Source of the DNA: a virus
Lineage: Duplodnaviria > Heunggongvirae > Uroviricota > Caudoviricetes
DNA length: 31,488 nt
Virus record (IMG/VR): IMGVR_UViG_2778261316_000005
Strand: one strand, 5' to 3'
The translations under genes and the position numbers were made by a program. Below are positions 1-23,185 of this stretch, piece by piece; positions within the stretch are counted from its first letter, which is position 1; every line of letters begins with the position of its first letter. The notes below the pieces were generated by a model. That model ran no database searches, had not been told where the DNA came from, and was given only the letters and a program-made list of their open reading frames with translations.

Positions 1-678
1 ATGTCAAAGACCACTTGCAGGAAATGTGGAAGCGAAGTAGAGCGAAAAGAGAAAAAATGCCCTTACTGTGCAGCAAAAAACCCAGGCATGAGATGGTGGA
101 AGCCGGTGATATTTATCATTGTCCTGGTCGCGCTACTCAAGGCTTGTTCGTACATACCTGATCCAGATCCGGCAAATCTTAGAAACAAAAATACCACCCT
201 CAAAGAATGGCGCAGCATGCTAAGAGATGACAGGTTGAAGTTTATTGATAGCTACCTTGCGCAAGAAAAAATCATCACCTCCGATACTGGTGGATTCTAT
301 AAATGCATCAGCCAGCACTCATATACGAAAAATGATGAGATTAAAGTTGATGAAGCTCTTGGCTGGTGTAAACAAGACTACCTTAAGAATCCCTCGGCTC
401 TATACCAGATGATTGATTTCGACAGATTTATCAGCAACACACGAAAATCTGACAGCTCTTACATCCCCATTACCAGGGATATAAAAAATAAGATGAACGA
501 CCCTTCATCATTCAAGCATCTTGAAACTAGCTATCGGTTTGTACTGGATAATTCAACACCGTATGCGATAGTCACCACGGTCTATCAAGGAAAAAATGCT
601 TACGGTGCGTCCGTCAAAAACTCGATAAAAGCCAAAGTTGACCTTTCCTCCGGCAGCGTAATTGAATATCTCAATTAA
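1..678 (+). CDS. hypothetical protein with N-terminal zinc ribbon (CxxC-x11-CxxC), one transmembrane helix and a ~170 aa C-terminal domain; AT-rich, probable cargo or host gene
   Basis: 225 aa ORF starting at nt 1 with ATG; MSKTTCRKCGSEVERKEKKCPYC followed by hydrophobic WWKPVIFIIVLVALL; GC roughly 40% versus mid-50s for the phage; followed by a hairpin terminator. Confidence 0.55.
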   Translation: MSKTTCRKCGSEVERKEKKCPYCAAKNPGMRWWKPVIFIIVLVALLKACSYIPDPDPANLRNKNTTLKEWRSMLRDDRLKFIDSYLAQEKIITSDTGGFYKCISQHSYTKNDEIKVDEALGWCKQDYLKNPSALYQMIDFDRFISNTRKSDSSYIPITRDIKNKMNDPSSFKHLETSYRFVLDNSTPYAIVTTVYQGKNAYGASVKNSIKAKVDLSSGSVIEYLN

Positions 679-2307: not shown

Positions 2308-3489
2308 ATGACCGACAACCTTTTCCACGGGGCGCGCACCAAAGAAAACACCGACCTCCAGACCGCGATCAATGACATTGATTCAACGGTCATTGGTCTG
2401 GTTGCGGTGGCCGATGATGCCGATCCCCTCACCTTTCCACTTGATACGCCAGTCCTGATCACTCGCGTGATTAGCGTGCTGGGTAAGGCGGGCAAAACAG
2501 GCTCACTGTATAAATCTCTCAAGGCTATTTCCGACCAGGTCAGCACGCGTGTAATTGTTGTTCGTGTCGCTGAAGCAAAGGAAGGAGAAAATGCCAAAAC
2601 GCAATCCCAGCTCATTATCGGTGGCACGCAGGCTGACGGAAGCTATACCGGGATGTTTGCCCTGTTGACCGCAGAGCAGAAAACCGGTTATCGCCCTCGC
2701 ATCCTCGGCATTCCGATGTACGACACGCAGGAAGTGACCGCACAGCTGCGCGTAATTGCGAAGCAGCTACGTGCATTCTCTTACAGCTACTGCGATGGCT
2801 GCGAGACTATCGCCGAAGCGAAAACCTACCGCGAGCAGTTCGCAGAGCGTGAAGGGATGATGATTTGGCCCAACTTCATCGCCTTCAACCCGCAGACCGG
2901 CGTTAATGAAGAATTCCCGGCTGTTGCCTATGCGCTTGGCCTGCGGGCACTGATTGATAATGAGCAGGGCTGGCACAAATCACTTTCTAACGTTGCGGTG
3001 AAAAACGTCCTGGGTATCTCTAAAGACGTGTTCTGGGCGTTACAGGCTGAGGACTCCGACGCTAACGAGCTGAACGCTAACGAGATTACCACGCTGATCA
3101 AACGCGATGGCTTCCGGTTCTGGGGTAACCGTACCACCGACACCGAAGAGTATATTTTCGAGGTGTTTACCCGGACGGCCCAAATTCTTGCGGACAGCAT
3201 TGCGGAAGCACAATTCACCACCGTGGACAAACCGCTTACCCCGGCTAACGTCAAAGACGTAGTAAGCGGGATCAATGCCAAACTTCAGGCGCTGGTCACT
3301 GCTGGCAAACTGATTGGTGCTGCATGCTGGTTTGATATTGTCGATAACCCGACCACCGGTATTCGCCAGGGTAAAGCTGTTGTTCGCTACAACTACAGCC
3401 CCGTACCACCGCTGGAAAACCTGACGCTGATCCAGACGTTTACCGATCAGTATTACGAACCAGCCTTTGCATCGCTGGGAGGTGCATAA
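2308..3489 (+). CDS. FI: contractile tail sheath protein gpFI
   Basis: 393 aa; strong similarity to P2 FI throughout (LRAFSYSYCDG..., GWHKSLSNV..., TTLIKRDGFRFWGNRT..., YSPVPPLENLTLIQ). Confidence 0.95.
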   Translation: MTDNLFHGARTKENTDLQTAINDIDSTVIGLVAVADDADPLTFPLDTPVLITRVISVLGKAGKTGSLYKSLKAISDQVSTRVIVVRVAEAKEGENAKTQSQLIIGGTQADGSYTGMFALLTAEQKTGYRPRILGIPMYDTQEVTAQLRVIAKQLRAFSYSYCDGCETIAEAKTYREQFAEREGMMIWPNFIAFNPQTGVNEEFPAVAYALGLRALIDNEQGWHKSLSNVAVKNVLGISKDVFWALQAEDSDANELNANEITTLIKRDGFRFWGNRTTDTEEYIFEVFTRTAQILADSIAEAQFTTVDKPLTPANVKDVVSGINAKLQALVTAGKLIGAACWFDIVDNPTTGIRQGKAVVRYNYSPVPPLENLTLIQTFTDQYYEPAFASLGGA

Positions 3490-4005
3490 ATGGCTATTCC
3501 GAAGAAACTCCGCCTGTTCACGATGTTTGTCGATGGCGACAACTACATCGGGAAGATCCCCAGCGTCACGCTCCCCAAAATTACCCGCAAAACGGAAGAT
3601 TATCAGGGTGGCGGGATGCTTGGCTCCGCTGCTGTTGACCTCGGCCTTGATTCAGGTGCACTGGATGCATCAATGGTTGTTGGCGGCATGGTCGAAGAGC
3701 TGATCCTGAAATGGGGCGGGGATATTGACGAACTACGCACGCGCTTTGTCGGTGAGATCTACAGCGGTGGAACAAGTTCCCTGCTTGAGGTCGAGATGCG
3801 CGGACGTATTACCGAAGTTGACCAGGGCGAAGCCAAGCAGGGTGATGACACCAGCCATACTTATGCGCTCAAAAATACGTATTACAAGCTCTCCGTGGAT
3901 GACAAGCCTTTGCTGGAAATCGACCTGCTGAACTTCATCTACAAGCGCAACGGCAAGAGTCTCTACCCGGACCGCATTGCGTCCGCCCTGGGCCTCGGCC
4001 AGTAA
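3490..4005 (+). CDS. FII: tail tube protein gpFII
   Basis: 171 aa; MAIPKKLRLFTMFVDG...VTLPKITRKTEDYQGGGMLGS matches the P2 FII N-terminus; RBS GGAGG upstream. Confidence 0.95.
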   Translation: MAIPKKLRLFTMFVDGDNYIGKIPSVTLPKITRKTEDYQGGGMLGSAAVDLGLDSGALDASMVVGGMVEELILKWGGDIDELRTRFVGEIYSGGTSSLLEVEMRGRITEVDQGEAKQGDDTSHTYALKNTYYKLSVDDKPLLEIDLLNFIYKRNGKSLYPDRIASALGLGQ

Positions 4006-4058
4006 TCTTTTTTAACCACTACCAATGGCGGCCAGCCTGGCCGCCCGGAGAAAGAATA

Positions 4059-4358
4059 ATGTCAGTAATTCTCAGCCAACCCATTAAACGCGGCGACCAG
4101 GAAATCAAATCCGTCGCAATCACCGACACAATCAAGCAGGCTGGCTCACTGCGCGGGCTGCGTCTGGTTGACGTTCTTAACTTCGACTATGACGCGGTAT
4201 CAACTCTGTTGACACGCGTCACCGCGCCTCAGCTGACAACCACTGATATTTCCTCAATGGCGACCGGCGACTTTACGGCGCTGTGCGAAGAAATCACGCC
4301 TTTTTTGACGAAAGCGGCGCCGTCCGCACCGAGCGAGGCGGCGACGGCGAGCAAGTAA
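4059..4358 (+). CDS. E: tail assembly chaperone gpE (zero-frame product)
   Basis: 99 aa; position between FII and tape measure; contains the slippery heptamer TTTTTTG at 4301-4307. Confidence 0.85.
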   Translation: MSVILSQPIKRGDQEIKSVAITDTIKQAGSLRGLRLVDVLNFDYDAVSTLLTRVTAPQLTTTDISSMATGDFTALCEEITPFLTKAAPSAPSEAATASK

Positions 4359-4531
4359 GAGAGGCAGTATTCAGCGATGTCGACGATCTGATCGCTGACA
4401 TCGCTGTGATATTTCACTGGCCGCCCTCCGAAATGCACAGCATGGAGTTGCGCGAGCTGATGGCCTGGCGCGAACGGGCGGCCATCAGAAGCGGTAACCA
4501 TGAGAAGGAGGATGACGACGATGGATCTTAG
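4059..4531 (+). CDS. E': gpE+E' fusion produced by programmed -1 ribosomal frameshift at TTTTTTG (4301-4307)
   Basis: The -1 frame continues open from the slippery site (…PF|FDESGAVRTERGG…) to 4531, overlapping the tape-measure start, as in P2 E/E'. Confidence 0.75.
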
Positions 4532-7493
4532 TATTCGCGTTGCGTTCAGTGCAATTGACAAGCTCACCCGCCCGGTCAGCGCCGCCAGTAAAGCCATTGG
4601 CGGCCTTTCTGACTCCCTCAAAAAAACACAGTCTTCCATCAGAGACCTGGAAAAAAGCGCAACGTCATTTGATAAGCTGCGCTCGCAAGCCAATGACACT
4701 GCGCAGAAGCTGAAAAGCACCCAGCGGGCCTTTGACGGTCTCAACCAGAAACAACGCGAAGGCGGCCAGCTTACTGAAGCCCAGACGGCACGACTTGAGT
4801 CGCTTCGCACCAAACTTTCCCGGCTGACTGAAACCTACAGCAGGCAAACGACGCAGCTGCGCACAGCTGCGCAGGCAGTGCGCCAGCATGGGGTTAACCT
4901 CACCACCGGCAGCGGCGCCATTCAGAGTGCCATCAGGCGTACGGAGCAATACAACCAGACGCTTGAGCGCGAACGTCGCCAGCTGGCAGCTACCCAGAAA
5001 GCCCAGGCCAGATACGATCGGGCAAAAGAGACTGCGGGCAAACTTCGCGGTGCTGGTATGGGTATGATGCTTGGCACTGCTGCTGCGGGCTATGCTGGCG
5101 GATCATTCCTGGCGCCTGCGATTGGTTTCGACGAGGAAATGTCACGTGTCCAGGCATTAACCCGCCTTAACAAAGACTCTTCCCAGATGGGAGATCTGCG
5201 GGCGCAGGCTAAAAAACTCGGTGCAGAAACCGCATTCACCTCACGCGATGCAGCCAGCGGGCAGGCATTTCTTGCAATGGCTGGCTTTACCCCAGAAGCT
5301 ATTCAGGCGGCATTGCCCGGCGTTCTGAATATGGCGCTGGCCGGCGGCATGGATCTTGGTGAAAGTGCCGACATCAGCTCCAACATTCTTTCGCAGTTCC
5401 GTCTCGATCCAAAGGAAATGGATCGGGTCAGTGATGTTTTGACCGCAGCATTTACCCGTACCAACACCGATTTAATGAACATCGGTGAGGCTATGAAGTA
5501 TGCAGGAACCGGGATGGCCGGTCTTGGCGTTGATGTTGAACGCACAACCGCCATGATCGGTGTAATGGCGAACGTTGGCCTGCGCGGAAGTATTGCAGGT
5601 ACGGGACTGCAAACCACCTTCTCGCGTCTGGCCGCACCAACAGGTAAAGCTCAGGCAGCCCTGAAAGAATTGGGCGTTTCTGTTGCCGATGCCACCGGAA
5701 AAATGCGACCGGCCGAAGTGGTCCTGTCTGATATTTATAAATCTATCAAAAAGTACGGTGACACAGACCAGTTGTCATTCTTCAAAGACATAGCAGGTGA
5801 GGAAGCAGCAAAGTCATTTCAGGCGCTGGTTAGATCGGCTGGTAGCGGTGAGCTGCAAAAACTCCTTGCCGATTTGCGCGGCTCTCAGGGTGAAGCGCAG
5901 AAGGCAGCGAAGGTCATGGCTGACAACCTCAGCGGTGATCTGAAAAACCTGGACAGCGCATGGGAGGGTTTCCGCATTCAGGTTGAGGAGACTGCCGACG
6001 GCCCTCTGCGCTCTCTCACTCAGGGGCTTAGCGATATGATCACCGCTGCCAGCACCTGGGTAAAAGAAAACCCCCGCCTGACACAAACAATCATTCTGGT
6101 TGTCGGTGGGGCACTCGCACTGGTTGCGGCAATTGGCGCTGCGTCACTGGCGATGGGTATTCTTATTGGCCCCCTCACCAAACTTCAGCTCGGTTTTTCA
6201 CTGCTGACCGGTGGTCGCGGGCTACTCGGCACCATTGCAGCTTTTCGCACTCTCGGCACTGTCGCGGGCCCGGCCATGGCGAACGTCAGAGGATGGTCCG
6301 TCGTACTGTCAGGAATCGCCCCTAACCTGGGAAGAATTTCAGCTATTCTCCCTGCGGTTCGCTCTGGTCTGCTTACCGCATTCCTGTCTCCTGGCGCACT
6401 TTTGGGATCGCTGACTAAAAACATTGGCATGTTGCTGTTGCGCCTCACTGGCTTGCCAGCAATCTGGGGCATGATCACCGGTGCGGTATCTATTCTTGGT
6501 GGGGCTTTATCTTTCTTACTCAGTCCAATAGGCCTGATTGGCGCCGCATTTGTCGCTGCGGGGTTGCTAATCTGGCGATACTGGGAACCCATTAAGGCGT
6601 TTTTCCTCGGTATGTTTACCGGAGTTATGCAGGCGATTTCACCTCTCAGGGATACCTTTGCCACCTTTTCCCCCATCTTTGACATGATCAGCAATGGGGT
6701 TAAATCCGTCTGGCAGTGGTTTACGAACCTCTTATCGCCAGTGCAGACCAGCAAGGAGACGCTTGATAAATGCACGAGCGCTGGGGAGACTTTCGGTAAC
6801 GTGCTCGGCGGGGCAATTAACCTTGTTCTGACCCCCGCAAAAATGCTCCTTGATACTTTAGGCTGGATACTCGAAAAGCTTGGCGTGTTACCCGATGAAG
6901 CAGAGAGGGCGAGCAAGAAACTGGATACCGCGAGAGCCAAAGCCAACGACCTGACTCCCAAAAAACCAGTTTCATGGGAGTGGGACCCACAGCAAAAGAA
7001 AATGGTCCAGAAGGAATGGAACTGGTCCCCCAAAAAAGCAGAGTCGCCAGTTGCTACTGGCGCACCACCAGGGGCCTCGCCACTGTCAGGAAATACCGGT
7101 ACGCAAAGACGTCTGCAAAGCATCGCAGACAATACAAAAGCAACCGCTGACAACACCAAGAAAGTCGGTCCGGGCGACATTATTTTCAAAAACCTGCCGC
7201 GTGCTCTGGCTTTGCGTGGCGCATACCAGGAAGCGCGTGTCACACCGCAATCAGTACCGCGAGTGGCAACACCCGCAGCTGGCGGCATTATTTCAGCGAC
7301 AGCAGCCACACAGGCTCCGGTATCAGCTCCTGTTACCGCTCCGACCGGCGGTGCCCCAGTTTTTAACATTACCTTTAACGATGTTGGTAAGCGCACGGAT
7401 CAGGAGCTGGAGAGAATGATGCGCAATGTTGTGCGTGATGCGATGGCCAGCACCGGCAGAATTAACCGTGGTTCTTTCCGCGACAGAGATTAG
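4521..7493 (+). CDS. T: tail tape measure protein gpT
   Basis: About 990 aa with coiled-coil N-terminal part, hydrophobic Gly/Ala-rich central segments and a C-terminal region; start placed at the ATG 9 nt after AGGAGG (the ORF is open from 4500). Confidence 0.9.
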   Translation: MDLSIRVAFSAIDKLTRPVSAASKAIGGLSDSLKKTQSSIRDLEKSATSFDKLRSQANDTAQKLKSTQRAFDGLNQKQREGGQLTEAQTARLESLRTKLSRLTETYSRQTTQLRTAAQAVRQHGVNLTTGSGAIQSAIRRTEQYNQTLERERRQLAATQKAQARYDRAKETAGKLRGAGMGMMLGTAAAGYAGGSFLAPAIGFDEEMSRVQALTRLNKDSSQMGDLRAQAKKLGAETAFTSRDAASGQAFLAMAGFTPEAIQAALPGVLNMALAGGMDLGESADISSNILSQFRLDPKEMDRVSDVLTAAFTRTNTDLMNIGEAMKYAGTGMAGLGVDVERTTAMIGVMANVGLRGSIAGTGLQTTFSRLAAPTGKAQAALKELGVSVADATGKMRPAEVVLSDIYKSIKKYGDTDQLSFFKDIAGEEAAKSFQALVRSAGSGELQKLLADLRGSQGEAQKAAKVMADNLSGDLKNLDSAWEGFRIQVEETADGPLRSLTQGLSDMITAASTWVKENPRLTQTIILVVGGALALVAAIGAASLAMGILIGPLTKLQLGFSLLTGGRGLLGTIAAFRTLGTVAGPAMANVRGWSVVLSGIAPNLGRISAILPAVRSGLLTAFLSPGALLGSLTKNIGMLLLRLTGLPAIWGMITGAVSILGGALSFLLSPIGLIGAAFVAAGLLIWRYWEPIKAFFLGMFTGVMQAISPLRDTFATFSPIFDMISNGVKSVWQWFTNLLSPVQTSKETLDKCTSAGETFGNVLGGAINLVLTPAKMLLDTLGWILEKLGVLPDEAERASKKLDTARAKANDLTPKKPVSWEWDPQQKKMVQKEWNWSPKKAESPVATGAPPGASPLSGNTGTQRRLQSIADNTKATADNTKKVGPGDIIFKNLPRALALRGAYQEARVTPQSVPRVATPAAGGIISATAATQAPVSAPVTAPTGGAPVFNITFNDVGKRTDQELERMMRNVVRDAMASTGRINRGSFRDRD

Positions 7494-7502
7494 GTGACGA
7501 TT

Positions 7503-7991
7503 ATGATGATGGTTTTTGGAATGTTCGTTTTTATGCTGCGCACCACCCCTTACCAGCAACTCCAGCACTCGCAGGAGTGGAGGCACGTAAAAAACGAGCG
7601 GGTTAACCAGTCAGCTGGCTGGCAGTACATTGGCGCCGGTGATGACAATATAACGCTGTCAGGCGTCCTTTACCCGGAAATCACCGGTGGAAATCTCTCG
7701 CTGTCAGCCCTTGAAACTATCGGCTACGCAGGGCGCCCATGGCCCCTTATTGAGGGTACGGGGCGTATTTATGGTATGTACGTTTTAACACGTCTGGAGC
7801 GGGGCAAGTCCGAGTTTGACCGATTTGGGAATCCAAAAAAAATCGAATTCACCCTCAGCCTGAGCCGTGTCGATGCGGATTACAGGGAGAAGCTACAAAG
7901 CTCGACCGTCAGCGATGCCCTGGCGGGGTTAAAGACGAGTGCAAATAATGCGATAAACCAGGTGAAAGACTCGCTCAACGGCCTGTTTTAG
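7503..7991 (+). CDS. U: tail protein gpU
   Basis: MMMVFGMFVFMLRTTPYQQL...WRH matches the P2 U N-terminus (MMMVLGLFVFMLETAPFQEL); AGGTGA RBS 5 nt upstream. The ORF-track GTG at 7494 lies inside the RBS. Confidence 0.9.
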   Translation: MMMVFGMFVFMLRTTPYQQLQHSQEWRHVKNERVNQSAGWQYIGAGDDNITLSGVLYPEITGGNLSLSALETIGYAGRPWPLIEGTGRIYGMYVLTRLERGKSEFDRFGNPKKIEFTLSLSRVDADYREKLQSSTVSDALAGLKTSANNAINQVKDSLNGLF

Positions 7992-7998
7992 TGATGCC

Positions 7999-8567
7999 TT
8001 AAGCCCCTTCATGTTCCCTTCTTGCTGAAGGGAACTTTTTATAAAGCGTCGACATTCCGACATCAAAAATAATAGCCACCCGCTGTCGTTTCTCCCCTGC
8101 GGCTATCAGTCTTCCCGCCTGTTCCCATTGCTGCTTTGTCAGTTTAGGTCGCCTCCCGCCTATCCTTCCTTCTGCGCGGGCAGCAACCAAACCGGTGCGG
8201 GTGCGCTCAACGATTAACTCTCTCTCCATTTCTGCCAGCGCCCCATGACGTGAAAGAAAAAGCGCCCCATAGGTGTTGAGGTATCAATGCTGTCTGTCAG
8301 GCTGCGGAAGTTAACACCGCGATTGCGTAGCTCTTCGATCATTGTCACCAGGTGTCGCATGCTCCGCCCGAGACGATCAAGCTTCCAGACAACCAGCGTA
8401 TCCCCCTCCGATAAGGTCCGTAATAAACGCTTAAGGCCCGGCCTTTCCGCTTTTGTTCCGCTTATTTTGTCTTCAAATATTTGTACACATCCTGCGCTTT
8501 CCAGTGCATTTCTTTGCAGCGCGGTGTTCTGGTCATTTGTTGACACCCTTACATAGCCGATCAGCAT
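7999..8567 (-). pseudogene. Hin/Gin/Pin/Cin-family serine DNA invertase, split by a 1-nt frameshift (or homopolymer sequencing error)
   Basis: The N-terminal ORF (8214-8567) has the catalytic motif YVRVSTNDQ and ...MGRFFFHVM; the C-terminal ORF (7999-8229) has the HTH domain ...ALAEMERELIVERTRTGL... in another frame. One base is missing in the run at 8241-8244; the joined product would be about 189 aa. Confidence 0.8.
8013..8040 (+). terminator. intrinsic terminator of the FI-U operon
   Basis: Stem GTTCCCTT / AAGGGAAC with a 7-nt loop followed by TTTTT, 22 nt after the U stop; it lies inside the 3' coding end of the minus-strand invertase. Confidence 0.6.
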
Positions 8568-8673
8568 AAAAATCCCCTTTATTTAGATGCCATAGTCCCT
8601 CGCATTGTATCGAGCATCGTCATTTCTGGCTGTACTGCAGGTTAGGTACCGCACCGTCAGAAGTAACTATGTC

Positions 8674-8699
8674 TTCCGGCAAACGTTGGTTTAGGAGAT
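8674..8699. other. gix/hix-like 26-bp invertase crossover site (left boundary of the invertible segment)
   Basis: TTCCGGCAAACGTTGGTTTAGGAGAT resembles the gix consensus TTCCTGTAAACCGAGGTTTTGGATAA; lies between the invertase start and the promoterless alternative fibre tip. Confidence 0.6.
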
Positions 8700-8729
8700 A
8701 TCAGTGCTACAGGTGTTGCGACAGGTAGT

Positions 8730-9065
8730 ATGGGCGGAACCGGATATGCCATATTTCCGATGATGATTGGCGGTGCACGTAAGACTTTTATTATGCAATG
8801 GGGATTGCTGACGCCTCTGAAATCAGGTGGCTATGTGAATATTAACCTTCCTGTCGCTTTTCCTACTATGGTGATGCAGGCATATGCAACACATGATAAT
8901 GCGACACTAAACACACGCCCGACAGTATATGCAATTACTACAACAAGCCGAACCACTATCACTGCGACGGCGACGTGCTTAGATGCTGGCTCAGTGGGCG
9001 CTACAGTGACACGCAGTAGTGACGATACTGCGTGTTACGGTCGTTATTTTGCAATAGGGTGCTGA
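8730..9065 (+). CDS. alternative tail fibre C-terminal variable cassette (Sv'-like), silent in this orientation
   Basis: Reading frame is open back to the left gix-like site (…PANVGLGDISATGVATGSMGGTG…), with no start or promoter of its own; Gly/Thr-rich fibre-tip-like sequence; directly followed by an assembly gene. Confidence 0.55.
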   Translation: MGGTGYAIFPMMIGGARKTFIMQWGLLTPLKSGGYVNINLPVAFPTMVMQAYATHDNATLNTRPTVYAITTTSRTTITATATCLDAGSVGATVTRSSDDTACYGRYFAIGC

Positions 9066-9066
9066 A

Positions 9067-9510
9067 ATGAATCTTAAATATTTTTCTCCATCTGAAAATG
9101 CGTTTTATGCCGGGGAGCTTAAAGAAAGCTATATCGCTGCTGGCTCATGGCCTTCTGATGCCTCGGAGGTTGATGAAAGTCTTTATCTTGAGTTTATCGA
9201 TAAACCGCCAGCAGGTAAGTATCGAGGAGTGGATAATGCAGGAATGCCCTGCTGGCTTGAAATTCCTCCTCCCACAGTAGAGGAAATGGCATCGAATGCA
9301 GAGAATATAAGACAGCAGCTCATTGATAAGGCAAATGTTTATATAAACAATCGTCAGTGGCCGGGAAAAGCAGCGATAGGCCGTTTAAAGGCAGATGAAC
9401 TGGAACGATATAACCTTTGGCTGGATTATCTGGACGCACTGGAACTGGTCGATACTTCCGGTGCGCCAGATATTGAATGGCCTACGCCTCCGGCAGCTCA
9501 GGCCAGATGA
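9067..9510 (+). CDS. tail fibre assembly protein (alternative, U'-like)
   Basis: 147 aa; C-terminal ...DTSGAPDIEWPTPP motif shared with the other tfa (…TAPDVIWPELP); 3' ends of the two genes overlap convergently. Confidence 0.8.
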   Translation: MNLKYFSPSENAFYAGELKESYIAAGSWPSDASEVDESLYLEFIDKPPAGKYRGVDNAGMPCWLEIPPPTVEEMASNAENIRQQLIDKANVYINNRQWPGKAAIGRLKADELERYNLWLDYLDALELVDTSGAPDIEWPTPPAAQAR

Positions 9511-10084
9511 CATCCGGCGCGGTGCTGGTATCCGTTGCCGTCACCGCGTCAATGTAATCCAGCACAGCGTTTAATCGGGTGGTTTCTGTCTGCGTCAGCT
9601 TCCTCCCGGCCTGCAATTTCAGTTGAATCAGACTAATGGAAGCCATTGCAGTATCAATCAGTGACTGACGCTGTGCTTCTGCCGCGCTTACTGCGGCGCT
9701 ATGCTGTGCCTCAGTATCTGTCACCCATTTCTCACCATCCCATTTATCGTATGGCGTTAACGGGGCGATAGTGGTTGTATTTTCGGGGTAATCACCCAGA
9801 GCTGTGATTTCTTTGGCGTCTCCCGTTTCGGTGTTATAGACGATTTCACCGCGATGGTCTGGCACATATTCCCATGAGTTTAAATCTGCCGAACGGCAGA
9901 TTGCATAACCAGCCTTATGTATACCAGGTTCATCCAGACAGGAATATGCCGGGATACCAACACCAACGGCAAGATATTCATTTGAAGTGGAAATATATTC
10001 CCGAGTTTCACCATCATAGCTATAGACGGTAATATCCCCCGCCTTCGTGGCAATAAGCTCGCTATTTAATACAGCGTTATCCAT
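9482..10084 (-). CDS. G: tail fibre assembly protein gpG
   Basis: 200 aa immediately downstream of H (TAATG overlap); tfa-type C-terminal motif. Confidence 0.85.
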   Translation of the reverse strand: MDNAVLNSELIATKAGDITVYSYDGETREYISTSNEYLAVGVGIPAYSCLDEPGIHKAGYAICRSADLNSWEYVPDHRGEIVYNTETGDAKEITALGDYPENTTTIAPLTPYDKWDGEKWVTDTEAQHSAAVSAAEAQRQSLIDTAMASISLIQLKLQAGRKLTQTETTRLNAVLDYIDAVTATDTSTAPDVIWPELPEA

Positions 10085-11370
10085 TATGCAGCCCTCACGA
10101 TAAAGTTAAATGCAATATTTCGCGCACGTGTTTCCGTTGATGTTCTGGCAACAAGTGATGCATCAAAATAATAATTCGCCTGTTTATATGTACCACCTAT
10201 CGCAATTGGTGTGAGATTTGGTTGCACTATTGAAGAGGTAAATGCGCCGAAAGTATTATTATTTGTCCCCGTGGTCATATCAAAAAAGCTACCTGTAATA
10301 TTTTGCAGCGTATCGCTCTGAGCACTCAATAACGCTCGCCCACTGTCCACTCCACGCCCATCATCCCAGCCACGAATAAACTCACCCCGCAGATCTGGCA
10401 GCACAAGACCGGGGTAAACCAGTGCCAGCTTCGGATAATTTTCAGCTGCAAATGGAGCGCCGTTACATTTCAGCCATCCTGTTGGTGGAGTGGCTAAAGG
10501 CCACGGAACAGGCACACCAACGGGTAATGCCGAACCTTCTCCCAAACCAAGGTTTTGGAGAAACTTCGCCACGTCAGGAATATCCCCGCCGTTTTGGCCT
10601 TTCTGCATCGCCCCGGTAATTCGAGCATCATCCCCCGAGGCTACCGTTCCGGCCGTTGTTCCAACATTTCGCGTCGAGCTGTCACCCAGCTCTAAATTCT
10701 GCCGTGCTAATGCGGTATCGGGTAAGTCCGACAGGTTGCGATCTTTTGCCAGCCGTGCGCTCCCGTTATCCATCGCAATTTTAACGGCCTTCGATGTTGC
10801 CGCCTGCGACTCGCTGTCACTGGTCACACTGCTGCTGAGCTGCACAAACCCTTTCTCTGTCGTTGACGCATCCGGGTGATTACGTGACTGCTCATGCGCG
10901 CGCAGCTGGCTGTCAACATACTGGCGTGTTGCCAGAACAACAGCCGGATCAATCTTCAACGTAACGGCTTCGGTGCTGCTGACAATCAGGATCACGCGAA
11001 TAACCTGAACGCGCCCGCTCCCCTCCTGCAACTGAGGCTTATAGGTTTCTGCGCAATTGGCAATCGCCACCATATCGCCATCTTTATCGAAAAGGCCGAT
11101 CTCACGAATCCACCACCCGCCGACGTCTTCCGGTATGACCTGTTCCGCAATGATCTGGCTGGCGTTCGCCGGGTCCACCGTCAGCATATTCAGAGGGGCG
11201 CGGCGTAACTCATGTACGAGGGCAGTTTGCGCCGGATTCGGTGTAGGCAGTACACCATTGCCATCACCAACGGCCAGCTGGGTAATCTCAACTTTCGTAC
11301 CCAACGCCGTGGCTTTTGCCAGTTTTGCCGCCCCGATATTGGTCAACAGGGCAAGATATTTAGTCGCCAC
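10084..11370 (-). CDS. H: tail fibre protein gpH (constant N-terminal part plus the currently expressed variable tip)
   Basis: N-terminus ...GAAKLAKATALGTKVEITQLAVGDGNG...HPDASTTEKGFVQLSS resembles P2 H; start placed at GTG 11370 with a GGAG RBS (the ORF track extends to a TTG at 11391). Confidence 0.9.
   Translation of the reverse strand: MATKYLALLTNIGAAKLAKATALGTKVEITQLAVGDGNGVLPTPNPAQTALVHELRRAPLNMLTVDPANASQIIAEQVIPEDVGGWWIREIGLFDKDGDMVAIANCAETYKPQLQEGSGRVQVIRVILIVSSTEAVTLKIDPAVVLATRQYVDSQLRAHEQSRNHPDASTTEKGFVQLSSSVTSDSESQAATSKAVKIAMDNGSARLAKDRNLSDLPDTALARQNLELGDSSTRNVGTTAGTVASGDDARITGAMQKGQNGGDIPDVAKFLQNLGLGEGSALPVGVPVPWPLATPPTGWLKCNGAPFAAENYPKLALVYPGLVLPDLRGEFIRGWDDGRGVDSGRALLSAQSDTLQNITGSFFDMTTGTNNNTFGAFTSSIVQPNLTPIAIGGTYKQANYYFDASLVARTSTETRARNIAFNFIVRAA
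10537..10562. other. gix/hix-like crossover site inside tail fibre gene H (right boundary of the invertible segment)
   Basis: TTCTCCCAAACCAAGGTTTTGGAGAA; its reverse complement matches the left site at 19 of 26 positions with the same central TT, and the codon phase is the same (N-L-G-L-G versus N-V-G-L-G). Confidence 0.6.
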
Positions 11371-11974
11371 TTGCGATCTCCACGGTATCAATTAAATGGA
11401 TTGCTGCGCCGGTGTAGTCATTGCCACCCACAGCGATAGTTTCAGGAAAATAGGGATATATCGTCAGCGTATCGCCCACGTAACACCCCGCCCCTATCTC
11501 GATATAACCCTGAGACTGAAGCGAAAGCGAAAGGCCGGTGAGGTGACGGCTTCTGGGTTTTGCATCGTTGATCAGGCGCTCAAGCTCCCGATAAGTCTCC
11601 TCGGTGATCCCCTCATCCTGAATGCCGATTTCAAGCCGGAAAGTGCCTGGCTCCTCGCCGTTCTGCCACCACTCAATCACCCTCAGCAAATAGCCGAAAG
11701 GTTCAACAACGCGCCTCAACGCCGAAATCGTGCCTTTGTGACGATGGACAAGCCAGGAGGCTTTGATTACCTGCCTCTTGGTCTGTTCAGACCAGCGCTT
11801 ATCCCAGCGATCAACAGACAACGCCCAGGCCAGATAGGGTAAAAACTCCACGGGGCATTCATCCGGATTCCAGAGCTTTCGAAGGTCGACAGGAATACCG
11901 CTGATCCGCGCCGTCGGTTTCTCCGCATTCCGCATGAAAGTGCTGGCTGAAGGCGGCAGGAGGCTGTTATTCAT
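11360..11974 (-). CDS. I: baseplate protein gpI
   Basis: ...LWNPDECPVEFLPYLAWALSVDRWD...HKGTISALRRVVEPFGYL...TFRLEIG closely resembles P2 gpI. Confidence 0.9.
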   Translation of the reverse strand: MNNSLLPPSASTFMRNAEKPTARISGIPVDLRKLWNPDECPVEFLPYLAWALSVDRWDKRWSEQTKRQVIKASWLVHRHKGTISALRRVVEPFGYLLRVIEWWQNGEEPGTFRLEIGIQDEGITEETYRELERLINDAKPRSRHLTGLSLSLQSQGYIEIGAGCYVGDTLTIYPYFPETIAVGGNDYTGAAIHLIDTVEIASGD

Positions 11975-12863
11975 CCGTTCCCCCTACGTTGATGGTGTGC
12001 GAAATACATCGTGCCGCCTGGGTATCATCGATCACGATATCTTCCGGAGGGTTCAGCAAGACTACACGCTGCACCCCCTGCACATGCAGAGCGGCCATAA
12101 TGGCCGAACGCGCAACATCGCGACCGATTTTCCCCTGCTCTGTGAGCCATGCCCGCAGTGCATCATCTGCCGCACTCAGGATCGGCTCAGATTCCGGCCC
12201 CGGATAGAGATAAAGCAGAGAGTCAATTTCATAATTCACAATCTCCGCTGACTGGACGGTTAGCCGGTCAGCGACAGGCCGCTTATCATCCGCTGAGAGC
12301 GTGTCGTTTACTGTTGCGATCAGCTCGTTGCTAGCCGTGCCATCCCCTTCGGTAGACAGAATGGACACGACGACAACAGCGGGTGAGGGGCTGGTTGCCC
12401 TGGCATCTGCAACTTTACCGCTGGCACTCTTCGCAAAATATTCGTATGCCCCGGTAGGGCCAGCAACGCTCAACCCTTCAAAAGCGGATTGCGCACGCAG
12501 ACGCAGCGCGGTGTCGCTTTCCATCTCTGCATCGGTGGTTTCGGTAGCCGGAATACGAACCAGGCGCTCGGTGTTCAGGTTACCCGCAAGGTTATCAAGA
12601 TCGGTGGAGACGGAATGGCTCAACATGCAGGCCGCAGCCCCCTCATTGATTCGCTGGCGCAGCATTAATTCCCGGTAGGCAATCACCTGCGCCAGTATGG
12701 TCAGGGGTTCAGACTCAAGTTTTAACGCAGCGGCAACAGAAGCCTGTTGTTCATCAGGGAAAGCCGCGATCATGACGGCTTTGACATCCGCCAGAATCAC
12801 TTCAAAATCCAGCGCCTCAATAATCTGCGGCGGGGGTAGCTGCGCCAAATCAACTTGTGCCAT
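11967..12863 (-). CDS. J: baseplate assembly protein gpJ
   Basis: MAQVDLAQLPPPQIIEALDFE...RPVADRLTVQSAEIVNYEIDSLLYLYPGPESEPI matches P2 gpJ. Confidence 0.9.
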   Translation of the reverse strand: MAQVDLAQLPPPQIIEALDFEVILADVKAVMIAAFPDEQQASVAAALKLESEPLTILAQVIAYRELMLRQRINEGAAACMLSHSVSTDLDNLAGNLNTERLVRIPATETTDAEMESDTALRLRAQSAFEGLSVAGPTGAYEYFAKSASGKVADARATSPSPAVVVVSILSTEGDGTASNELIATVNDTLSADDKRPVADRLTVQSAEIVNYEIDSLLYLYPGPESEPILSAADDALRAWLTEQGKIGRDVARSAIMAALHVQGVQRVVLLNPPEDIVIDDTQAARCISHTINVGGTDE

Positions 12864-13218
12864 TGCTGCTTTTCCTGAGTGTTAAGGTTGTCGTCTGCTG
12901 TTCCATAGATTCCGTCAGAGCCCCTGACAATCCCGCCTCCACTGCTCCTGACTGCGAATAACGCACATCCACGATGCTCAGCGTGATCCGCGGCTCCCAT
13001 GTTGCCAGCGCAATAACCACTGCGCTCATCAGCTGCATGCGTGTAACGTCGTTTTGTGGACCATCAATCAGATCAGGAACGAGAGAGCCGTAGTCACGGC
13101 GCATGACCCGCGATCCAATCGGGGTGTTAAGAATGTCACTGGCTGACTGCCACACGTGGGCGGCATCCGTCAGCGTTCCCGTGCCATCAGGATTCATCCC
13201 GGTATAGCGCACCGTCAT
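12850..13218 (-). CDS. W: baseplate protein gpW
   Basis: MTVRYTGMN...PIGSRVMRRDYGSL matches P2 gpW (MTARYLGMN...PVGSRVMRRDYGSL). Confidence 0.9.
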   Translation of the reverse strand: MTVRYTGMNPDGTGTLTDAAHVWQSASDILNTPIGSRVMRRDYGSLVPDLIDGPQNDVTRMQLMSAVVIALATWEPRITLSIVDVRYSQSGAVEAGLSGALTESMEQQTTTLTLRKSSNGTS

Positions 13219-13799
13219 TTCGTGCCCTCCGTCCAGCTTCCGCCACGCTGCACTCCACCATGACCATGATCATCAACCTGCACACCGTTTGAGATGAACG
13301 CACCGCCAGTGTGCGTAAAGTCCCCCTGCATTTTGCCGCCTTCCGTAACGGTGAAATTTTTGGTTTTCAGCATCTCGGTACACTCGACCAGTGGCGTTTC
13401 CAGTAAGACCTTAACCGACGCCTCAATCGTTGCTGATTTAATACCGCTGACCTGCAAAGCCCCTGCTTCTGCGTCATAGCGAAACTTCGCTCCATCCGGT
13501 GCGGTCACGATCATTTCTTTTGCCGATATGCCTGGCGCCGGATTGTCGTTGCTGTAAAGACTTCCCCCTATGATCGCAGCGGTAGTGTTACCCCCAAGGC
13601 ACAGGAACCATACCTGCTCGCCAACAGACGGCGGCACCCAGATGCTGAAAGCGCCTGCACGCTGTGCATTCCAGCGCAGCCAGGTCGAATCCAGCTCTCC
13701 GCTTTTTACCCTTACCCGCCACTTTTCCTCGTCTATCTCCGTCACCGTACCGGTGCGAACGATGTTTTCCAGCAGGCGAATGACTTCAGCCAGATCCAT
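13215..13799 (-). CDS. V: baseplate spike protein gpV
   Basis: ...WVPPSVGEQVWFLCLGG...QVSGIKSATIEA...DFTHTGG matches P2 gpV. Confidence 0.9.
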   Translation of the reverse strand: MDLAEVIRLLENIVRTGTVTEIDEEKWRVRVKSGELDSTWLRWNAQRAGAFSIWVPPSVGEQVWFLCLGGNTTAAIIGGSLYSNDNPAPGISAKEMIVTAPDGAKFRYDAEAGALQVSGIKSATIEASVKVLLETPLVECTEMLKTKNFTVTEGGKMQGDFTHTGGAFISNGVQVDDHGHGGVQRGGSWTEGTK

Positions 13800-14440
13800 C
13801 AGCTCACCCCCAGAGAATCAATGACCTGTCGGGCTATAGCCATGCGGTCCGCCTTGCTCAGGCCGAGCAACTCACGGCGCGGGTAGCTGGCCATCGCGCC
13901 ACTGTCGTTTACCCTGTCCCGTAGCCCGTACTGGTGAACGCGGGCGATGCGGGCAGCAGCGCCCGAAAAACCAACTACAGCCCCCTCAGAAGTCGCTCTT
14001 GCTTTCAGAAAACGGGTTGTGCGCAGTCGGCGAAACATAGGATCGCTTTTCGTGGTATCACGGCGCGTCTCGCTGAAACTGATATCAAGATAACGCTCAA
14101 TATCAGAGCGATAGAACGAGCGAACGGCCCCTTTCCCCTCATCAAAGCCTGTCAGCATGCGTCCCCGGCTTCCACGGGTTGCCCGCCAGTTCCTCAGACG
14201 ACGCTCCTCACCTTGCCAGACAAACCCGATCCCAGCCTGGGAGCGTAAGACGCGGCGATGACGCTTCTGGTATTTCGTGCCATCCGGAGCTGCCTGCTTC
14301 CCTATGCGCTGGCTCTGGCTACGGCGTAATGTAGTCGCTATTCCGCGCGCAGTACGCAACCGTCTCGCTGGCGCCATTGCGGACAGGATGTCTGCAAAAA
14401 CCTGATCGAGTTGATGAAACAGCGCTGCATCATCGGTCAT
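13799..14440 (-). CDS. S: virion morphogenesis / tail completion protein gpS
   Basis: Position between R and V; Arg-rich 213 aa protein typical of the Phage_tail_S family. Confidence 0.8.
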   Translation of the reverse strand: MTDDAALFHQLDQVFADILSAMAPARRLRTARGIATTLRRSQSQRIGKQAAPDGTKYQKRHRRVLRSQAGIGFVWQGEERRLRNWRATRGSRGRMLTGFDEGKGAVRSFYRSDIERYLDISFSETRRDTTKSDPMFRRLRTTRFLKARATSEGAVVGFSGAAARIARVHQYGLRDRVNDSGAMASYPRRELLGLSKADRMAIARQVIDSLGVS

Positions 14441-14886
14441 GCCAGCTCACCTCCGCCAAATACCACTTCCCACTCTCCGCCATTAATGCGTGGGCGGTCT
14501 TCGCTCAGGTGTTTCGCGACGGGCTTCCCGTCAACGGTTTCCACCATGACGCGCTCCCAGACCGGCACCTTGAACAGAAGATCGGCCAGGTCGTCGCTGA
14601 TAATGTCAGCGTCAAACTCCACCTTGCGGTTATTGTCAGGATTCAGCAGTAAATCAGGCTGATATTGCCAGGCCCAGGCCATGATCGGCAGCATCAGATC
14701 ATCAACCGCCCCGGGGAATTCCACGGCGAGAATATTGATGGTGTAGAGGTACATGAAAGACGGTTCGCCGGTCGCTTCAATCCCGATATTGCCTTTTTCC
14801 ACCCAGACGGTGATTTGCTCCGGGTTGGCCTTACACCAGGTGTTACCGGCTATCAGGGCTTCACGCATCAACTCTGCTTTTTTCAC
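14437..14886 (-). CDS. R: tail completion protein gpR
   Basis: 149 aa; synteny and similarity to P2 gpR (…NPEQITVWVEKGNI… versus …NPDMLRIFVDNGSI…). Confidence 0.8.
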   Translation of the reverse strand: MKKAELMREALIAGNTWCKANPEQITVWVEKGNIGIEATGEPSFMYLYTINILAVEFPGAVDDLMLPIMAWAWQYQPDLLLNPDNNRKVEFDADIISDDLADLLFKVPVWERVMVETVDGKPVAKHLSEDRPRINGGEWEVVFGGGELA

Positions 14887-15179
14887 TTTATCCCCCTGGC
14901 GATTCGCCGCAGTTCCAGCTCTCTGATACCCGCCTTATCGGCGTTGCATGTGTCCAGCGCATCCAGCAGCGCATCGGACCACGGAGCGAGGCTCCCGTAT
15001 GTCATTGGTTTTGGCGGTGCTGGCGTTTCAGTTTTTGCCGTCAGGCTTTCCGGTAAAGGTTCCTGAATAATCACCGGCGCCAACTTCGGCGGCTCGCTGG
15101 TACAGGCTGTCAGCCACACGGTCAGGCACAGGCACAGCGGCGCATTTATCACCGACCAGCTCAGTTTTGATATTTTCAC
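14883..15179 (-). CDS. lysC: o-spanin LysC (Rz1-like outer-membrane lipoprotein), starting inside lysB in another frame
   Basis: Signal peptide with lipobox L-T-A-C, Pro-rich mature region; overlaps the 3' part of lysB as in P2 lysB/lysC. Confidence 0.7.
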   Translation of the reverse strand: MKISKLSWSVINAPLCLCLTVWLTACTSEPPKLAPVIIQEPLPESLTAKTETPAPPKPMTYGSLAPWSDALLDALDTCNADKAGIRELELRRIARGIK

Positions 15180-15423
15180 GGCGCTTTTCCCCTGTATCGC
15201 TACGCTTCTGAGCCAGTGTTTTCAGACCAGCGGCTACTTCGTTCACGTCGTTACGTAACGCCCTGACCTCGGCCAGCACATCACCGGTTTGCTTAAGCTT
15301 CTGGTTAGCTTCTCCAAGTGCCGTCTCTGCGGCCTCTCGTTTACTGCTCTCCAGCGTCAGCCTGACGCCTGCGATGACCAGCAGAAGGGAAATAAAAACG
15401 GTAAATACACCCAGCGCTTTCAT
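15028..15423 (-). CDS. lysB: i-spanin LysB (Rz-like)
   Basis: N-terminal transmembrane helix followed by a coiled-coil-rich periplasmic domain; directly downstream of the endolysin. Confidence 0.75.
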   Translation of the reverse strand: MKALGVFTVFISLLLVIAGVRLTLESSKREAAETALGEANQKLKQTGDVLAEVRALRNDVNEVAAGLKTLAQKRSDTGEKRRENIKTELVGDKCAAVPVPDRVADSLYQRAAEVGAGDYSGTFTGKPDGKN

Positions 15424-15971
15424 TTCACCCCCTTCAGCTCAGGCTCTGAGAGGCACCAGTCCCGAAACTCTTCCCGGCGCCTTTCCAGCCCCGGCATACG
15501 TTTTCCGCCGGAGTTGACAAAGTCTGTGAGTCGCTCGCAAACGCCCTGCCAGTTACCATCCTGCGCATTGCGCCAGATTGTTGTTCTGACCTTCTGGCCC
15601 TTTTTGTTGGTGTACCAGCCAAGACCACCACAACCGACGTTAAATGCGCCATCAGTCAGCGCTTCGAAAACACGTTGTGGTGCAGCTGCGCCATTAAACT
15701 CGCGGTTTACGCATTTCTCAGCACGAAACAGGTCATTCACCCATCGCTCGGCGATCTCGCGCTCGGCGTATTCGCGGTTCTGCACGTTACTGGTCGACCC
15801 CATGCCTACGGTCAGCACACCCGACGGGCAGTAATACGGCGTCTTTCGACAATCCTCGTATTTCGCCATCTTCAGCTGCGCTTCAGGACTTGTACGCAGC
15901 GTCTGCGGCCAGAGTGCCGCTGCGAGAGAGACAATCGCCGCAACAGAACAGGCAATAATTCCTCTTTTCAT
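15420..15971 (-). CDS. SAR endolysin (phage lysozyme with N-terminal signal-arrest-release domain)
   Basis: Hydrophobic N-terminus MKRGIIACSVAAIVSLAAALW, then lysozyme motifs (…GVLTVGMGST…, …FNVGCGGLG…, …RREEFRDWC…) resembling P21 R-type SAR endolysins. Confidence 0.85.
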   Translation of the reverse strand: MKRGIIACSVAAIVSLAAALWPQTLRTSPEAQLKMAKYEDCRKTPYYCPSGVLTVGMGSTSNVQNREYAEREIAERWVNDLFRAEKCVNREFNGAAAPQRVFEALTDGAFNVGCGGLGWYTNKKGQKVRTTIWRNAQDGNWQGVCERLTDFVNSGGKRMPGLERRREEFRDWCLSEPELKGVK

Positions 15972-16249
15972 CGCGGTGACTCCCTGATAGTCCGGATTAA
16001 CTCCTTCACGTCCTGCCGGTTCTCGGTATCGTCCCGAATCGCATCGATCAATTCATTCAGCAGAACATTATTGGTTTCATGGATGCGGGACATCCGGCGG
16101 CGATGGAGTTCACCCAGCACGGCAACCACGATCCCGGTGAGCGCAGCAATGAAAGCCAGCCAGTCCTTCTGCGTCATCATGCCTACGCCCGTCAGCAGCA
16201 TCGACCAGAGGTATACCGTCCAGTTCCAGAGGCGGTTTATCAGCTCCAT
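15968..16249 (-). CDS. Y: holin (gpY-like)
   Basis: 93 aa with two hydrophobic segments and a charged C-terminus; immediately upstream of the endolysin. Confidence 0.7.
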   Translation of the reverse strand: MELINRLWNWTVYLWSMLLTGVGMMTQKDWLAFIAALTGIVVAVLGELHRRRMSRIHETNNVLLNELIDAIRDDTENRQDVKELIRTIRESPR

Positions 16250-16440
16250 AATTGAACAGTCTCCTTTGTCGCAGAGGTGTCGACGTCAGGCAGTTCAACT
16301 TCCTGCCCTGCATCAAGGAAGATCTGACCGGCCAGCGCATGATTCGCAGCCAGTACGATCTCGGTCACGCCCTGGGTGATGCCGTAGTGACGCTGACACA
16401 ACAAATCCACTGTATCGCCCTGCAATGCCTTCACTTTCAT
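16240..16440 (-). CDS. X: tail protein gpX
   Basis: MKVKALQGDTVDLLCQRHYG...ELPDVDT... matches P2 gpX (MKTFALQGDTLDAICVRYYG...). Confidence 0.85.
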   Translation of the reverse strand: MKVKALQGDTVDLLCQRHYGITQGVTEIVLAANHALAGQIFLDAGQEVELPDVDTSATKETVQLWS

Positions 16441-16937
16441 CAGAACGCCTCCGCAGAGTTACGGACCACACCCTGAATATCCGAGATAGCCCAGCGCGCA
16501 TCACGCCAGTGATCATTCGCCTGGGTTGCGAGTGCGGCGGCGCGCTTCTCGCCCGCGTCGCCCGTGGTGTCAACATCGCGGAAAGTCTCGATCAGCAGGG
16601 CACGCGAGATGCTGTAAACTGCGCGGCGCCAGCGATATACCTTTACGCTCTCGTCGTTTATCACCATGGCCGGTACGGCGGCCAAACTGGTATATCCGGC
16701 CCCAATCTGTTCAGCCTGCCATTGCTTCAGCTGGTCAGCAGTGTGAGCTACGGCTTCGATGACCACCTGCTTTAAACGCGAAGTGGTAACCGCACCGGTG
16801 ATCCGCATCTCCTTACGGACGTTGCTCAGCACTATCTCGGGCCAGAACTCCCCGGCGGTGACTTTCTCTCCGCCGTCATCCACGTCCGGCACATCCTCCG
16901 CAGAGGGGGTAACTGTGCGAGGGGCCACAAGGCTCAT
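16440..16937 (-). CDS. L: head completion/stabilisation protein gpL
   Basis: 165 aa; synteny between M and X; similarity to P2 gpL (…VKVYRWRRAVY…HWRDARWAISDIQG…). Confidence 0.9.
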   Translation of the reverse strand: MSLVAPRTVTPSAEDVPDVDDGGEKVTAGEFWPEIVLSNVRKEMRITGAVTTSRLKQVVIEAVAHTADQLKQWQAEQIGAGYTSLAAVPAMVINDESVKVYRWRRAVYSISRALLIETFRDVDTTGDAGEKRAAALATQANDHWRDARWAISDIQGVVRNSAEAF

Positions 16938-17040
16938 CGTGTAGTCTCCAGAAAAGGTTGGCGGTGAGCGGACGGAGAAAAGCTAACGCGATGCGTTGCA
17001 GATCTCCGCCCGCGCCGCCAGCGCACGGGGCGCAAGTCGG

Positions 17041-22794: not shown

Positions 22795-23027
22795 TCTCCT
22801 GGCCGCATCGTCATTTCTGGCGGTGCGGTACCACCCTCAGCACCATCATTTCCGGCCATATCGGCCACTCGCGAAACACAAATAAACCACACCCCCTACC
22901 AGACGCAGCCAGCGGGCTTCTGGCGCGACTTCTCTCGCGCTGCCGCTTCGCTCAACCATCAACATGAGCGCCCGACAGGCGGCGAATGGCGGATGATATG
23001 ACCCCCTGCCTGACCCCCTTTGCGCGC

Positions 23028-23047
23028 GCTTGCTCCCCCGCCTCGCC
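23028..23047. other. cos site (P2-type 19-nt cohesive end region), intact in the prophage
   Basis: Minus-strand reading GGCGAGGCGGGGGAGCAAGC closely resembles the P2 cohesive end GGCGAGGCGGGGAAAGCAC; located between Q and the early region as expected. Confidence 0.6.
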
Positions 23048-23066
23048 TGCGCGCTAAACCGACCTC

Positions 23067-23170
23067 TTTTTGTGCACTTTGTGCAGGCCGCCCAGGCCCC
23101 GCCAGCGCTGGGGCGGCATGGAAAAAACGTTGTTTCAAAAATTGTGCAAATTTGTGCAACTTTTTGCATC
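23067..23170. repeat. cos-proximal direct repeats of TTGTGCA (putative terminase recognition, cosB-like)
   Basis: Four to five copies (tttgtgcac, tttgtgcag, attgtgcaa, tttgtgcaa, ttttgcat) within about 100 bp next to cos; ACCCCCT-type repeats on the other side (22890-23020). Confidence 0.5.
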
Positions 23171-23185
23171 CGCGCGGCCCCATTT

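Follow-up and report, generated by a model that had tools for sequence, protein, structure and literature searches.

A probable invertible tail-fibre segment of the e14 P-segment type, with a frameshifted invertase gene, in a P2-like prophage

The question raised by the locus described here is whether a P2-like prophage carries a tail-fibre switch operated by DNA inversion, and whether this switch could still be thrown. The locus lies in IMG/VR virus record IMGVR_UViG_2778261316_000005, a stretch of 31,488 nucleotides (nt), hereafter called the window, whose coordinates are used throughout. According to the layout of its open reading frames (ORFs) and to Pfam, the window corresponds to a P2-like prophage in reverse orientation. 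Invertase-driven tail-fibre switching is textbook biology, known from Mu, P1 and e14. The sequence of the window makes it very probable that the 1861-bp segment at 8688-10548 is an invertible tail-fibre segment of the Din family (Pin/Gin/Cin/Hin/Fin type), homologous to the P segment of e14, with its cis-acting parts intact and its own invertase dead. The initial annotation had proposed a Mu G-segment-like switch within a P2-type tail gene cluster. This proposal is supported, notwithstanding that the e14 P segment is the more exact model, and relatives with the opposite orientation exist (related and reference loci are designated below by L numbers).

Crossover sites, fibre tips and reading frames

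The segment is bounded by two 26-bp sites, the left one at 8674-8699 (TTCCGGCAAACGTTGGTTTAGGAGAT, core TT at 8686-8687) and the right one, inside H, at 10537-10562 (TTCTCCCAAACCAAGGTTTTGGAGAA, core AA at 10549-10550). Since one core reads TT and the other AA, the sites face in opposite directions. The left site is laid out as TTCCGGCAAACG TT GGTTTAGGAGAT; its outer half, TTCCGGCAAACG, is part of the backbone and its inner half (reverse complement ATCTCCTAAACC) is part of a silent, Gp53-like tip cassette. The right site is laid out as TTCTCCCAAACC AA GGTTTTGGAGAA, its outer half belonging to the constant region of H. The core pattern AAACSWWSGTTT has exactly two occurrences in 31.5 kb, versus 0.01 expected, and the AAAC-N4-GTTT core is retained at both sites.

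A weight matrix was derived from eight half-sites of Mu gix and e14 pix taken from annotated records, namely the annotated boundaries of the G segment in Mu (L005, 1455-1480 and 4513-4538) and the sites of e14 (L006, 3779-3804 and 5606-5631). With this matrix, the right and left sites of the window scored 34.0 and 22.3, respectively, versus 14.5 for the next best window position and 6.8-17.8 for the maxima of 20 shuffles. Moreover, the right site is identical at 23 of 26 positions to the reverse complement of one e14 site (CTCTCGAAAACCTTGGTTTGGGAGAA). The two sites thus match real gix and pix sites, and the view that inverted 26-bp sites bound the segment at these positions is confirmed, no other such site being present in the window. 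As only two sites stand above background, a two-site, two-state system is indicated rather than a shufflon. A third site or a multiple-inversion system, such as a shufflon, p15B Min or the three-repeat P2-like locus of enteropathogenic Escherichia coli (EPEC), was considered and ruled out on the same count.

The constant N-terminal part of H (about 274 amino acids (aa), 10551-11370, minus strand), which matches Pfam Phage_tail_fib and Phage_fiber_2, lies outside the segment. The H ORF as called spans 10084-11391 on the minus strand (Phage_tail_fib and Collar), and judging from the sequence its start is most likely the GTG at 11370, which would give a protein of 428 aa. Inside the segment, four coding units are found: (i) on the minus strand, the expressed variable C-terminal tip of H (10084-10548), which is StfE-like, has a Collar domain at residues 292-339 and shares 51-59% identity with e14 StfE and with the tip that is silent in L004; (ii) on the same strand, an expressed gpG/TfaE-type chaperone of 200 aa (9482-10084, Caudo_TAP), sharing 89.5% identity with e14 TfaE; (iii) on the plus strand, a silent alternative fibre tip of 125 codons (8688-9065, Gp53-like_C, PF21882), sharing 98.4% identity with residues 351-475 of the H protein expressed by L004; and (iv) also on the plus strand, a silent chaperone of 147 aa that partners the alternative tip (9067-9510, Caudo_TAP), matching the chaperone that L004/L062 express downstream of H at 100% and e14 TfaP at 59% identity. 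The current tip and gpG therefore lie inside the segment in the expressed orientation, and the alternative tip has its own assembly gene, both as initially annotated. At their 3' ends, the two chaperone genes share 29 bp (9482-9510), a tail-to-tail overlap also present between tfaP and tfaE in e14 (L006, 4518-4546), and a weak inverted repeat (9406-9437 and 9546-9577) is due to the homologous C-termini of the two chaperones.

The codon phase is the same at both sites, H reading AAC CTT GGT and the silent tip AAC GTT GGT, with the core at codon positions 2-3 in each case, so that a shared core and a shared phase, both noted at the outset, are upheld. Across the right site, H reads …DVAKFLQNL/GLGEGSALPVG…, where the slash marks the junction, and the plus-strand frame through the left site reads stop-LCLPANV/GLGDISATGVATGSMGGTG…, the junction of the silent tip being …ANVGLGD…. 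A stop codon is located three codons upstream of the left site; the frame opens there, with no separate start for the silent tip at the crossover. Because the frame opens just before the site, the coding part of the silent cassette begins at the crossover, at 8688, and not at the ATG at 8730. The 111-aa 'ORF' at 8730-9065 is thus better annotated as a silent C-terminal cassette. A promoter scan of the plus strand found no sigma-70-like promoter in the interval from the invertase gene to the silent cassette, which is consistent with a promoterless cassette. The description of a promoterless alternative tip at 8730-9065 therefore stands as regards the tip itself, which has a Gp53-like_C domain, and the missing promoter, its start being moved to 8688.

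In the proposed mechanism, the two inverted 26-bp sites would be brought together by a serine invertase, and strand exchange at their 2-bp core would flip the 1861-bp segment. In the present state, the constant region of H (to codon 274, …FLQNL) is joined to the Collar-type tip, followed by the TfaE-like chaperone. In the inverted state, the same constant region would be in frame with the 125-aa Gp53-like tip, followed by the 147-aa chaperone, with a predicted H' of 399 aa (274 constant residues and 125 tip residues) and predicted junctions …CAAACGTTGGTTTGGGAGAA… and …CCAAAACCTTGGTTTAGGAGAT…. Such a swap of tips would change receptor specificity, and inversion could therefore be expected to change the host range. 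For host-range prediction, the fibre currently encoded should be regarded as one of two possible fibres.

The invertase pseudogene and a putative enhancer

The gene next to the segment (7999-8567, minus strand) belongs to the Pin/Gin family of serine DNA invertases, and it is a pseudogene according to Pfam and to alignment with L001. It is split into a catalytic fragment of 117 aa (8214-8567, Resolvase) and a helix-turn-helix (HTH) fragment of 76 aa (7999-8229, HTH_7), both on the minus strand, and these two small recombinase ORFs should be annotated as one broken gene. Alignment to the intact gene of L001 (570 nt, 189 aa) attributes the split to a single missing G in a G5 run (plus-strand C-run at 8241-8244): L001 has CATGGGGGCG where the window has CATGGGGCG. 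Once the G is restored, the protein shares 96.8% identity with L001, 84% with e14 PinE and 75% with Mu Gin, and matches PDB 3uj3 and 4m6f, two Gin crystal structures, with an E value of 3e-91. The RVSTNDQ motif is in place, with Ser9. A Hin/Gin-type invertase was thus correctly recognized beside the segment, in the form of a pseudogene split by a 1-nt deletion. An exact look-up of the repaired 189-aa protein found no copy in the protein collection.

Sequencing error was considered as the origin of the frameshift and rejected. Indeed, the identical 1-nt deletion is found in five independent assemblies (L070-L074), aligned without gaps, and the 117-aa product is encoded on 13 contigs. The truncation falls after residue 108, so that helix E and the DNA-binding domain are lost. 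Serine recombinases are expected to be inactive after such a loss, and the truncated product should be inactive. Its own invertase being frameshifted, the switch is non-autonomous here, and no intact invertase gene able to encode an active enzyme is present at the locus. The invertase gene of L003 has an independent 1-nt deletion.

In gin and hin, a Fis-dependent enhancer lies at the 5' end of the invertase gene. In the window, a putative recombinational enhancer can be placed, from third-position conservation, at the 5' end of the invertase gene, over some 120 nt (8448-8567). For nt 1-120, the identity of third codon positions with those of Mu gin and Fels-2 fin reaches 0.60-0.70, versus 0.27-0.50 elsewhere, and when 17 distinct invertase genes are compared, third-position entropy has its minimum in codons 1-35. 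This raised conservation of synonymous sites is suggestive only, and would fit an embedded DNA element. As the region is located upstream of the frameshift, the putative enhancer is probably intact, and it may be functional in the window element. Both sites, both cassettes and, probably, this enhancer make up the cis-acting parts that have been preserved.

Related loci and the fate of the switch

Both orientations of the segment occur among natural relatives. The opposite state is found in canonical P2-like prophages, L004 (= L062) and L063-L068, which express V-W-J-I-H fused to the same Gp53-like tip (98.4% identity over 125 aa), followed by the 147-aa chaperone (100% identical), a silent TfaE-like gene and Collar tip, an intact invertase gene and FI. 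The natural joint of these opposite-state prophages, …LGLGDISATGV…, is the joint predicted for the window, and the alternative fusion occurs as an expressed gene in L004, L062 and L067. The expectation that inversion would fuse the constant region of H to a different tip is borne out by this expressed fusion and by the reading frame.

Prophages close to the window differ in their segments. Compared with the window, L072 differs at one of 6439 bp in the flank next to H and at two of 2404 bp in the flank next to the invertase gene, and it carries a different segment allele, inverted, with an H of 384 aa bearing a Gp53-like tip. L070 resembles L072, having a window-like backbone and a different, inverted segment allele (flanks of L070 and L072 98-99.98% identical). 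L074 has the orientation of the window with another chaperone allele, L071 has other cassettes on a window-type backbone, and L003 has the cassettes of the window, inverted. Homology between the window and its relatives always stops at 8687-8698 and resumes at 10536-10539. At 20 loci where the half-sites were compared, the inner half-site goes with the cassette (ATCTCCTAAACC with Gp53-like tips and TTCTCCCAAACC with Collar tips) and the outer half-site stays with the backbone. These patterns of breakpoints and half-sites are what recombination at the site cores would give.

The segment behaves like a module that is exchanged horizontally. In L061, the segment at 5615-7497 matches window 8681-10563 with 1 mismatch in 1883 bp (99.95%), although the backbone of L061 has only 76-81% identity to that of the window. 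Different segments, in turn, are found in L072 and L074, whose backbones are about 99.9% identical to the window, and each of these junctions falls within the 26-bp sites. The same cassette pair is also found in the Mu-like L065 and in another myovirus context, L060, and contigs with the exact 147-aa chaperone account for 159 index blocks. The crossover sites may thus serve as junctions at which whole cassette pairs are swapped between unrelated myovirus backbones, and the 26-bp sites would then mark the boundaries where fibre-tip modules pass between phage lineages.

In other relatives of the backbone, the interval from U to H has decayed in various ways: in L001 and L002 the invertase is intact and the inner half-site is degenerate (TTCTCCCAATTG…); L081 and L082 retain an invertase and a single set of fibre and chaperone; L083-L085, L088 and L089 have no invertase; and L086 has a 90-aa invertase remnant together with an inserted acyltransferase (Acyl_transf_3).

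If there were no inversion system at all, the repeats would have arisen by chance and the opposed tip and chaperone would be leftovers of unrelated recombination. In favour of this explanation, the two sites are complementary to each other at only 19 of 26 positions. Chance is, however, contradicted by the weight-matrix and pattern statistics, and further evidence against it comes from the in-frame alternative fusion, from the loss of homology with relatives at the sites, from the same cassettes being inverted elsewhere and from the Pin homologue that adjoins the segment. The probability of this explanation is negligible, the comparative data having effectively refuted it. Some observations nevertheless weigh against an invertible segment. 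The left site scores 22.3, versus 28-31 for the reference sites, its outer half being weak; the predicted 399-aa H' is absent from a 15-billion-protein collection by exact look-up; and the predicted inverted junction is absent from viral and metagenome contigs by exact scan. In a control scan, however, the un-inverted junction gave only 3 + 1 hits in the viral and metagenome collections. The lineage being nearly absent there, the missing H' and inverted junction carry little weight.

Given a probable inversion system, the switch would be either frozen in the Collar-tip state or flipped in trans by a co-resident Pin-family invertase. It is very improbable that it is an autonomous, active switch, the frameshift being an artefact or being bypassed by a -1 slip of tRNA-Gly on GGGG that would restore the wild-type protein. 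The deletion does lie within a homopolymer, and a -1 shift on A-TGG-GGC would yield exactly …HVMGALAEME…; but the same deletion recurs in at least five independent assemblies and on 13 contigs, which excludes an artefact, and a G4 run is too short for efficient slippage, with neither a heptameric slip site nor a downstream stimulator. Contig ends have some bearing on the same point. L079 (Logan, SRR7499276; four samples; 100% identical) ends at window 10544, after …CCTTGGTTT, and an independent short-read contig of Yokenella regensburgei ATCC 49455 (L007, NZ_JMPS01000018.1) also ends at 10544, the last base common to both orientations. Such ends are compatible with mixed orientation, as in the de Bruijn assembly of a mixed population, but are no proof of it. 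Within the segment, further contigs of the lineage stop at various other points, so that these ends are unspecific. Contig ends were accordingly not taken as a sign of mixed orientation, since repeats common to several prophages explain them equally well.

A frozen relic, with a dead invertase, a host devoid of compatible invertases, a Collar-tip fibre only and a decaying silent cassette, is a serious possibility, somewhat below an even chance. It would agree with a frameshift that is real and has spread, with the many states of decay at the locus in relatives (degenerate sites, lost invertase, invertase remnant) and with the weak outer half of the left site. Against it, both silent ORFs are intact and 98-100% identical to copies expressed elsewhere, the AAAC-N4-GTTT core is kept at both sites, and backbones with the same frameshift vary in segment and orientation, which suggests rearrangement after, or independently of, the loss of the invertase. 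Inversion in trans by a foreign Pin is also documented, as the e14 P segment is flipped by PinQ from the Qin prophage (PMC12529663). The window may therefore hold an orphan switch whose own invertase is dead and whose usable cis-acting parts would be rearranged by the Pin-family invertases of co-resident prophages, the sites acting in addition as cassette-swap junctions. This is put forward tentatively, as a possibility clearly below an even chance; on such a reading, the window segment could be flipped in trans.

The prophage backbone and known systems

The host of the prophage can be assigned to E. coli, since the H protein read from the GTG start is identical over 428 aa to WP_097737645.1 of E. 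coli, and since contig NMDK01000006.1 of assembly GCA_002537655.1 shares 100% identity with window 6360-16974. No close relative of the backbone was found in the phage database, where matches are limited to the cassette and the invertase (70-91% identity).

A P2-like (Peduoviridae) gene set was recognized by Pfam, comprising V, W, J, I, H, G, FI, FII, E, T, U and D together with gpA, cox, integrase and terminase. On the minus strand, from right to left, the capsid and lysis genes are followed by V, W, J (11967-12863), I (11360-11974), H and then the gpG-type chaperone. The plus strand encodes FI, FII, E, T and U (2308-7991), while D (1002 to ~2156) is on the minus strand. The stretch at 23.7-31.5 kb encodes gpA, cox, an integrase, a Dam-type methylase and a repressor-like HTH protein. 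P2 itself has the order H-G-(Z/fun)-FI-FII-E-T-U-D-ogr on one strand; in the window, FI-U are on the plus strand and H, G and D on the minus strand. The FI-U block, from the tail sheath through gpU, is thus flipped relative to P2 and Fels-2, D (with ogr, as judged from relatives) precedes FI in divergent orientation, and U runs towards the invertase gene. A terminator-like hairpin (8013-8035) lies between these two converging genes. The flipped FI-U order is kept in L001-L003 and in many contigs encoding an identical U protein, and it is therefore a trait of the lineage and not a recent event. A window scan revealed no gix-like sites at the ends of the FI-U block. A one-off large inversion of this block by the invertase was accordingly rejected, the order being conserved in relatives and the block ends having no site-like sequence.

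In the early region, a D12-class N6-adenine methyltransferase (Dam-like, orphan-type; 26749-27714) and a protein with an Rv2179c-like 3'-5' exoribonuclease domain (27947-28495) are encoded on the minus strand. ORFs 1-678 (plus strand), 22846-23319 (minus strand) and 28784-29056 (minus strand) have no Pfam, NCBIfam or PADLOC match and may be cargo genes. ORF 1-678, located beyond ogr at the edge of the prophage, also encodes a hypothetical protein in relative L001. NCBIfam and PADLOC returned no specific match for the chaperones or the unassigned ORFs.

Switches of this kind have been documented in several prophages: the fibre segment of Fels-2 is inverted between strains LT2 and LT7 (PMC7953296), and phase-variable inversion was demonstrated by sequencing and polymerase chain reaction in two P2-like prophages of EPEC E2348/69 and in e14 (PMC4272514). 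Moreover, many deposited P2-like phages have an annotated invertase beside the fibre genes. The mechanism was thus rightly referred to earlier systems in the initial annotation, and the arrangement is common in P2-like phages. The locus is of little value as a discovery, its use lying in annotation and host-range prediction.

With P2, the window shares the tail gene set V, W, J, I, H, G, FI, FII, E, T, U, D and ogr. However, P2 has neither an invertase nor an alternative cassette, having fun(Z) between G and FI, and the FI-U block of the window is opposite relative to H and D. With the Mu G segment and Gin, the element shares its mechanism and layout: the N-terminal part of the fibre is constant and encoded outside the segment, the alternative C-termini and the chaperones are encoded within it, and an invertase (75% identical) is adjacent. 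In addition, TTCCGGCAAACG… of the window resembles TTCCTGTAAACC… of gix. Unlike the window segment (1.86 kb), the Mu segment measures ~3 kb, the phage backbone differs, and the fibres and chaperones are largely unrelated, only an 81-aa stretch of H resembling Mu S.

The Salmonella prophage Fels-2 (Fin = STM2702) and the EPEC P2-like prophages have in common with the window V-W-J-I-H, a segment with two tips and two gpG-like genes, and a serine invertase. In Fels-2, the order is ogr-D-U-T-E-FII-FI-invertase-[tip, G', G, H]-I-J-W-V, with the invertase at the fun(Z) position of P2. The placement of the switch at the Z/fun position, initially proposed, is therefore valid for Fels-2 and canonical relatives, where the invertase lies between G and FI, and is only approximate for the window, where the invertase abuts the 3' end of U instead of the FI promoter. 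Indeed, the F operon is colinear in Fels-2, while in the window FI-U are inverted and the invertase converges on U; in addition, the two invertases are ~72% identical at the DNA level and that of the window is broken.

The e14 P segment with PinE resembles the element in its invertase (84% identity), its TfaE-type chaperone (89.5%) and its second chaperone (59%), in its right site (23/26 identical), in the 29-bp chaperone overlap and in having two states and two sites. In contrast, e14 is a lambdoid remnant whereas the window is a complete-looking P2-like prophage, the silent tip of the window is Gp53-like and 37% identical to StfP, and the invertase of the window is frameshifted. In summary, the device is already known in P2-like phages, and the locus departs from its precedents only in its flipped FI-U block and in its broken invertase.

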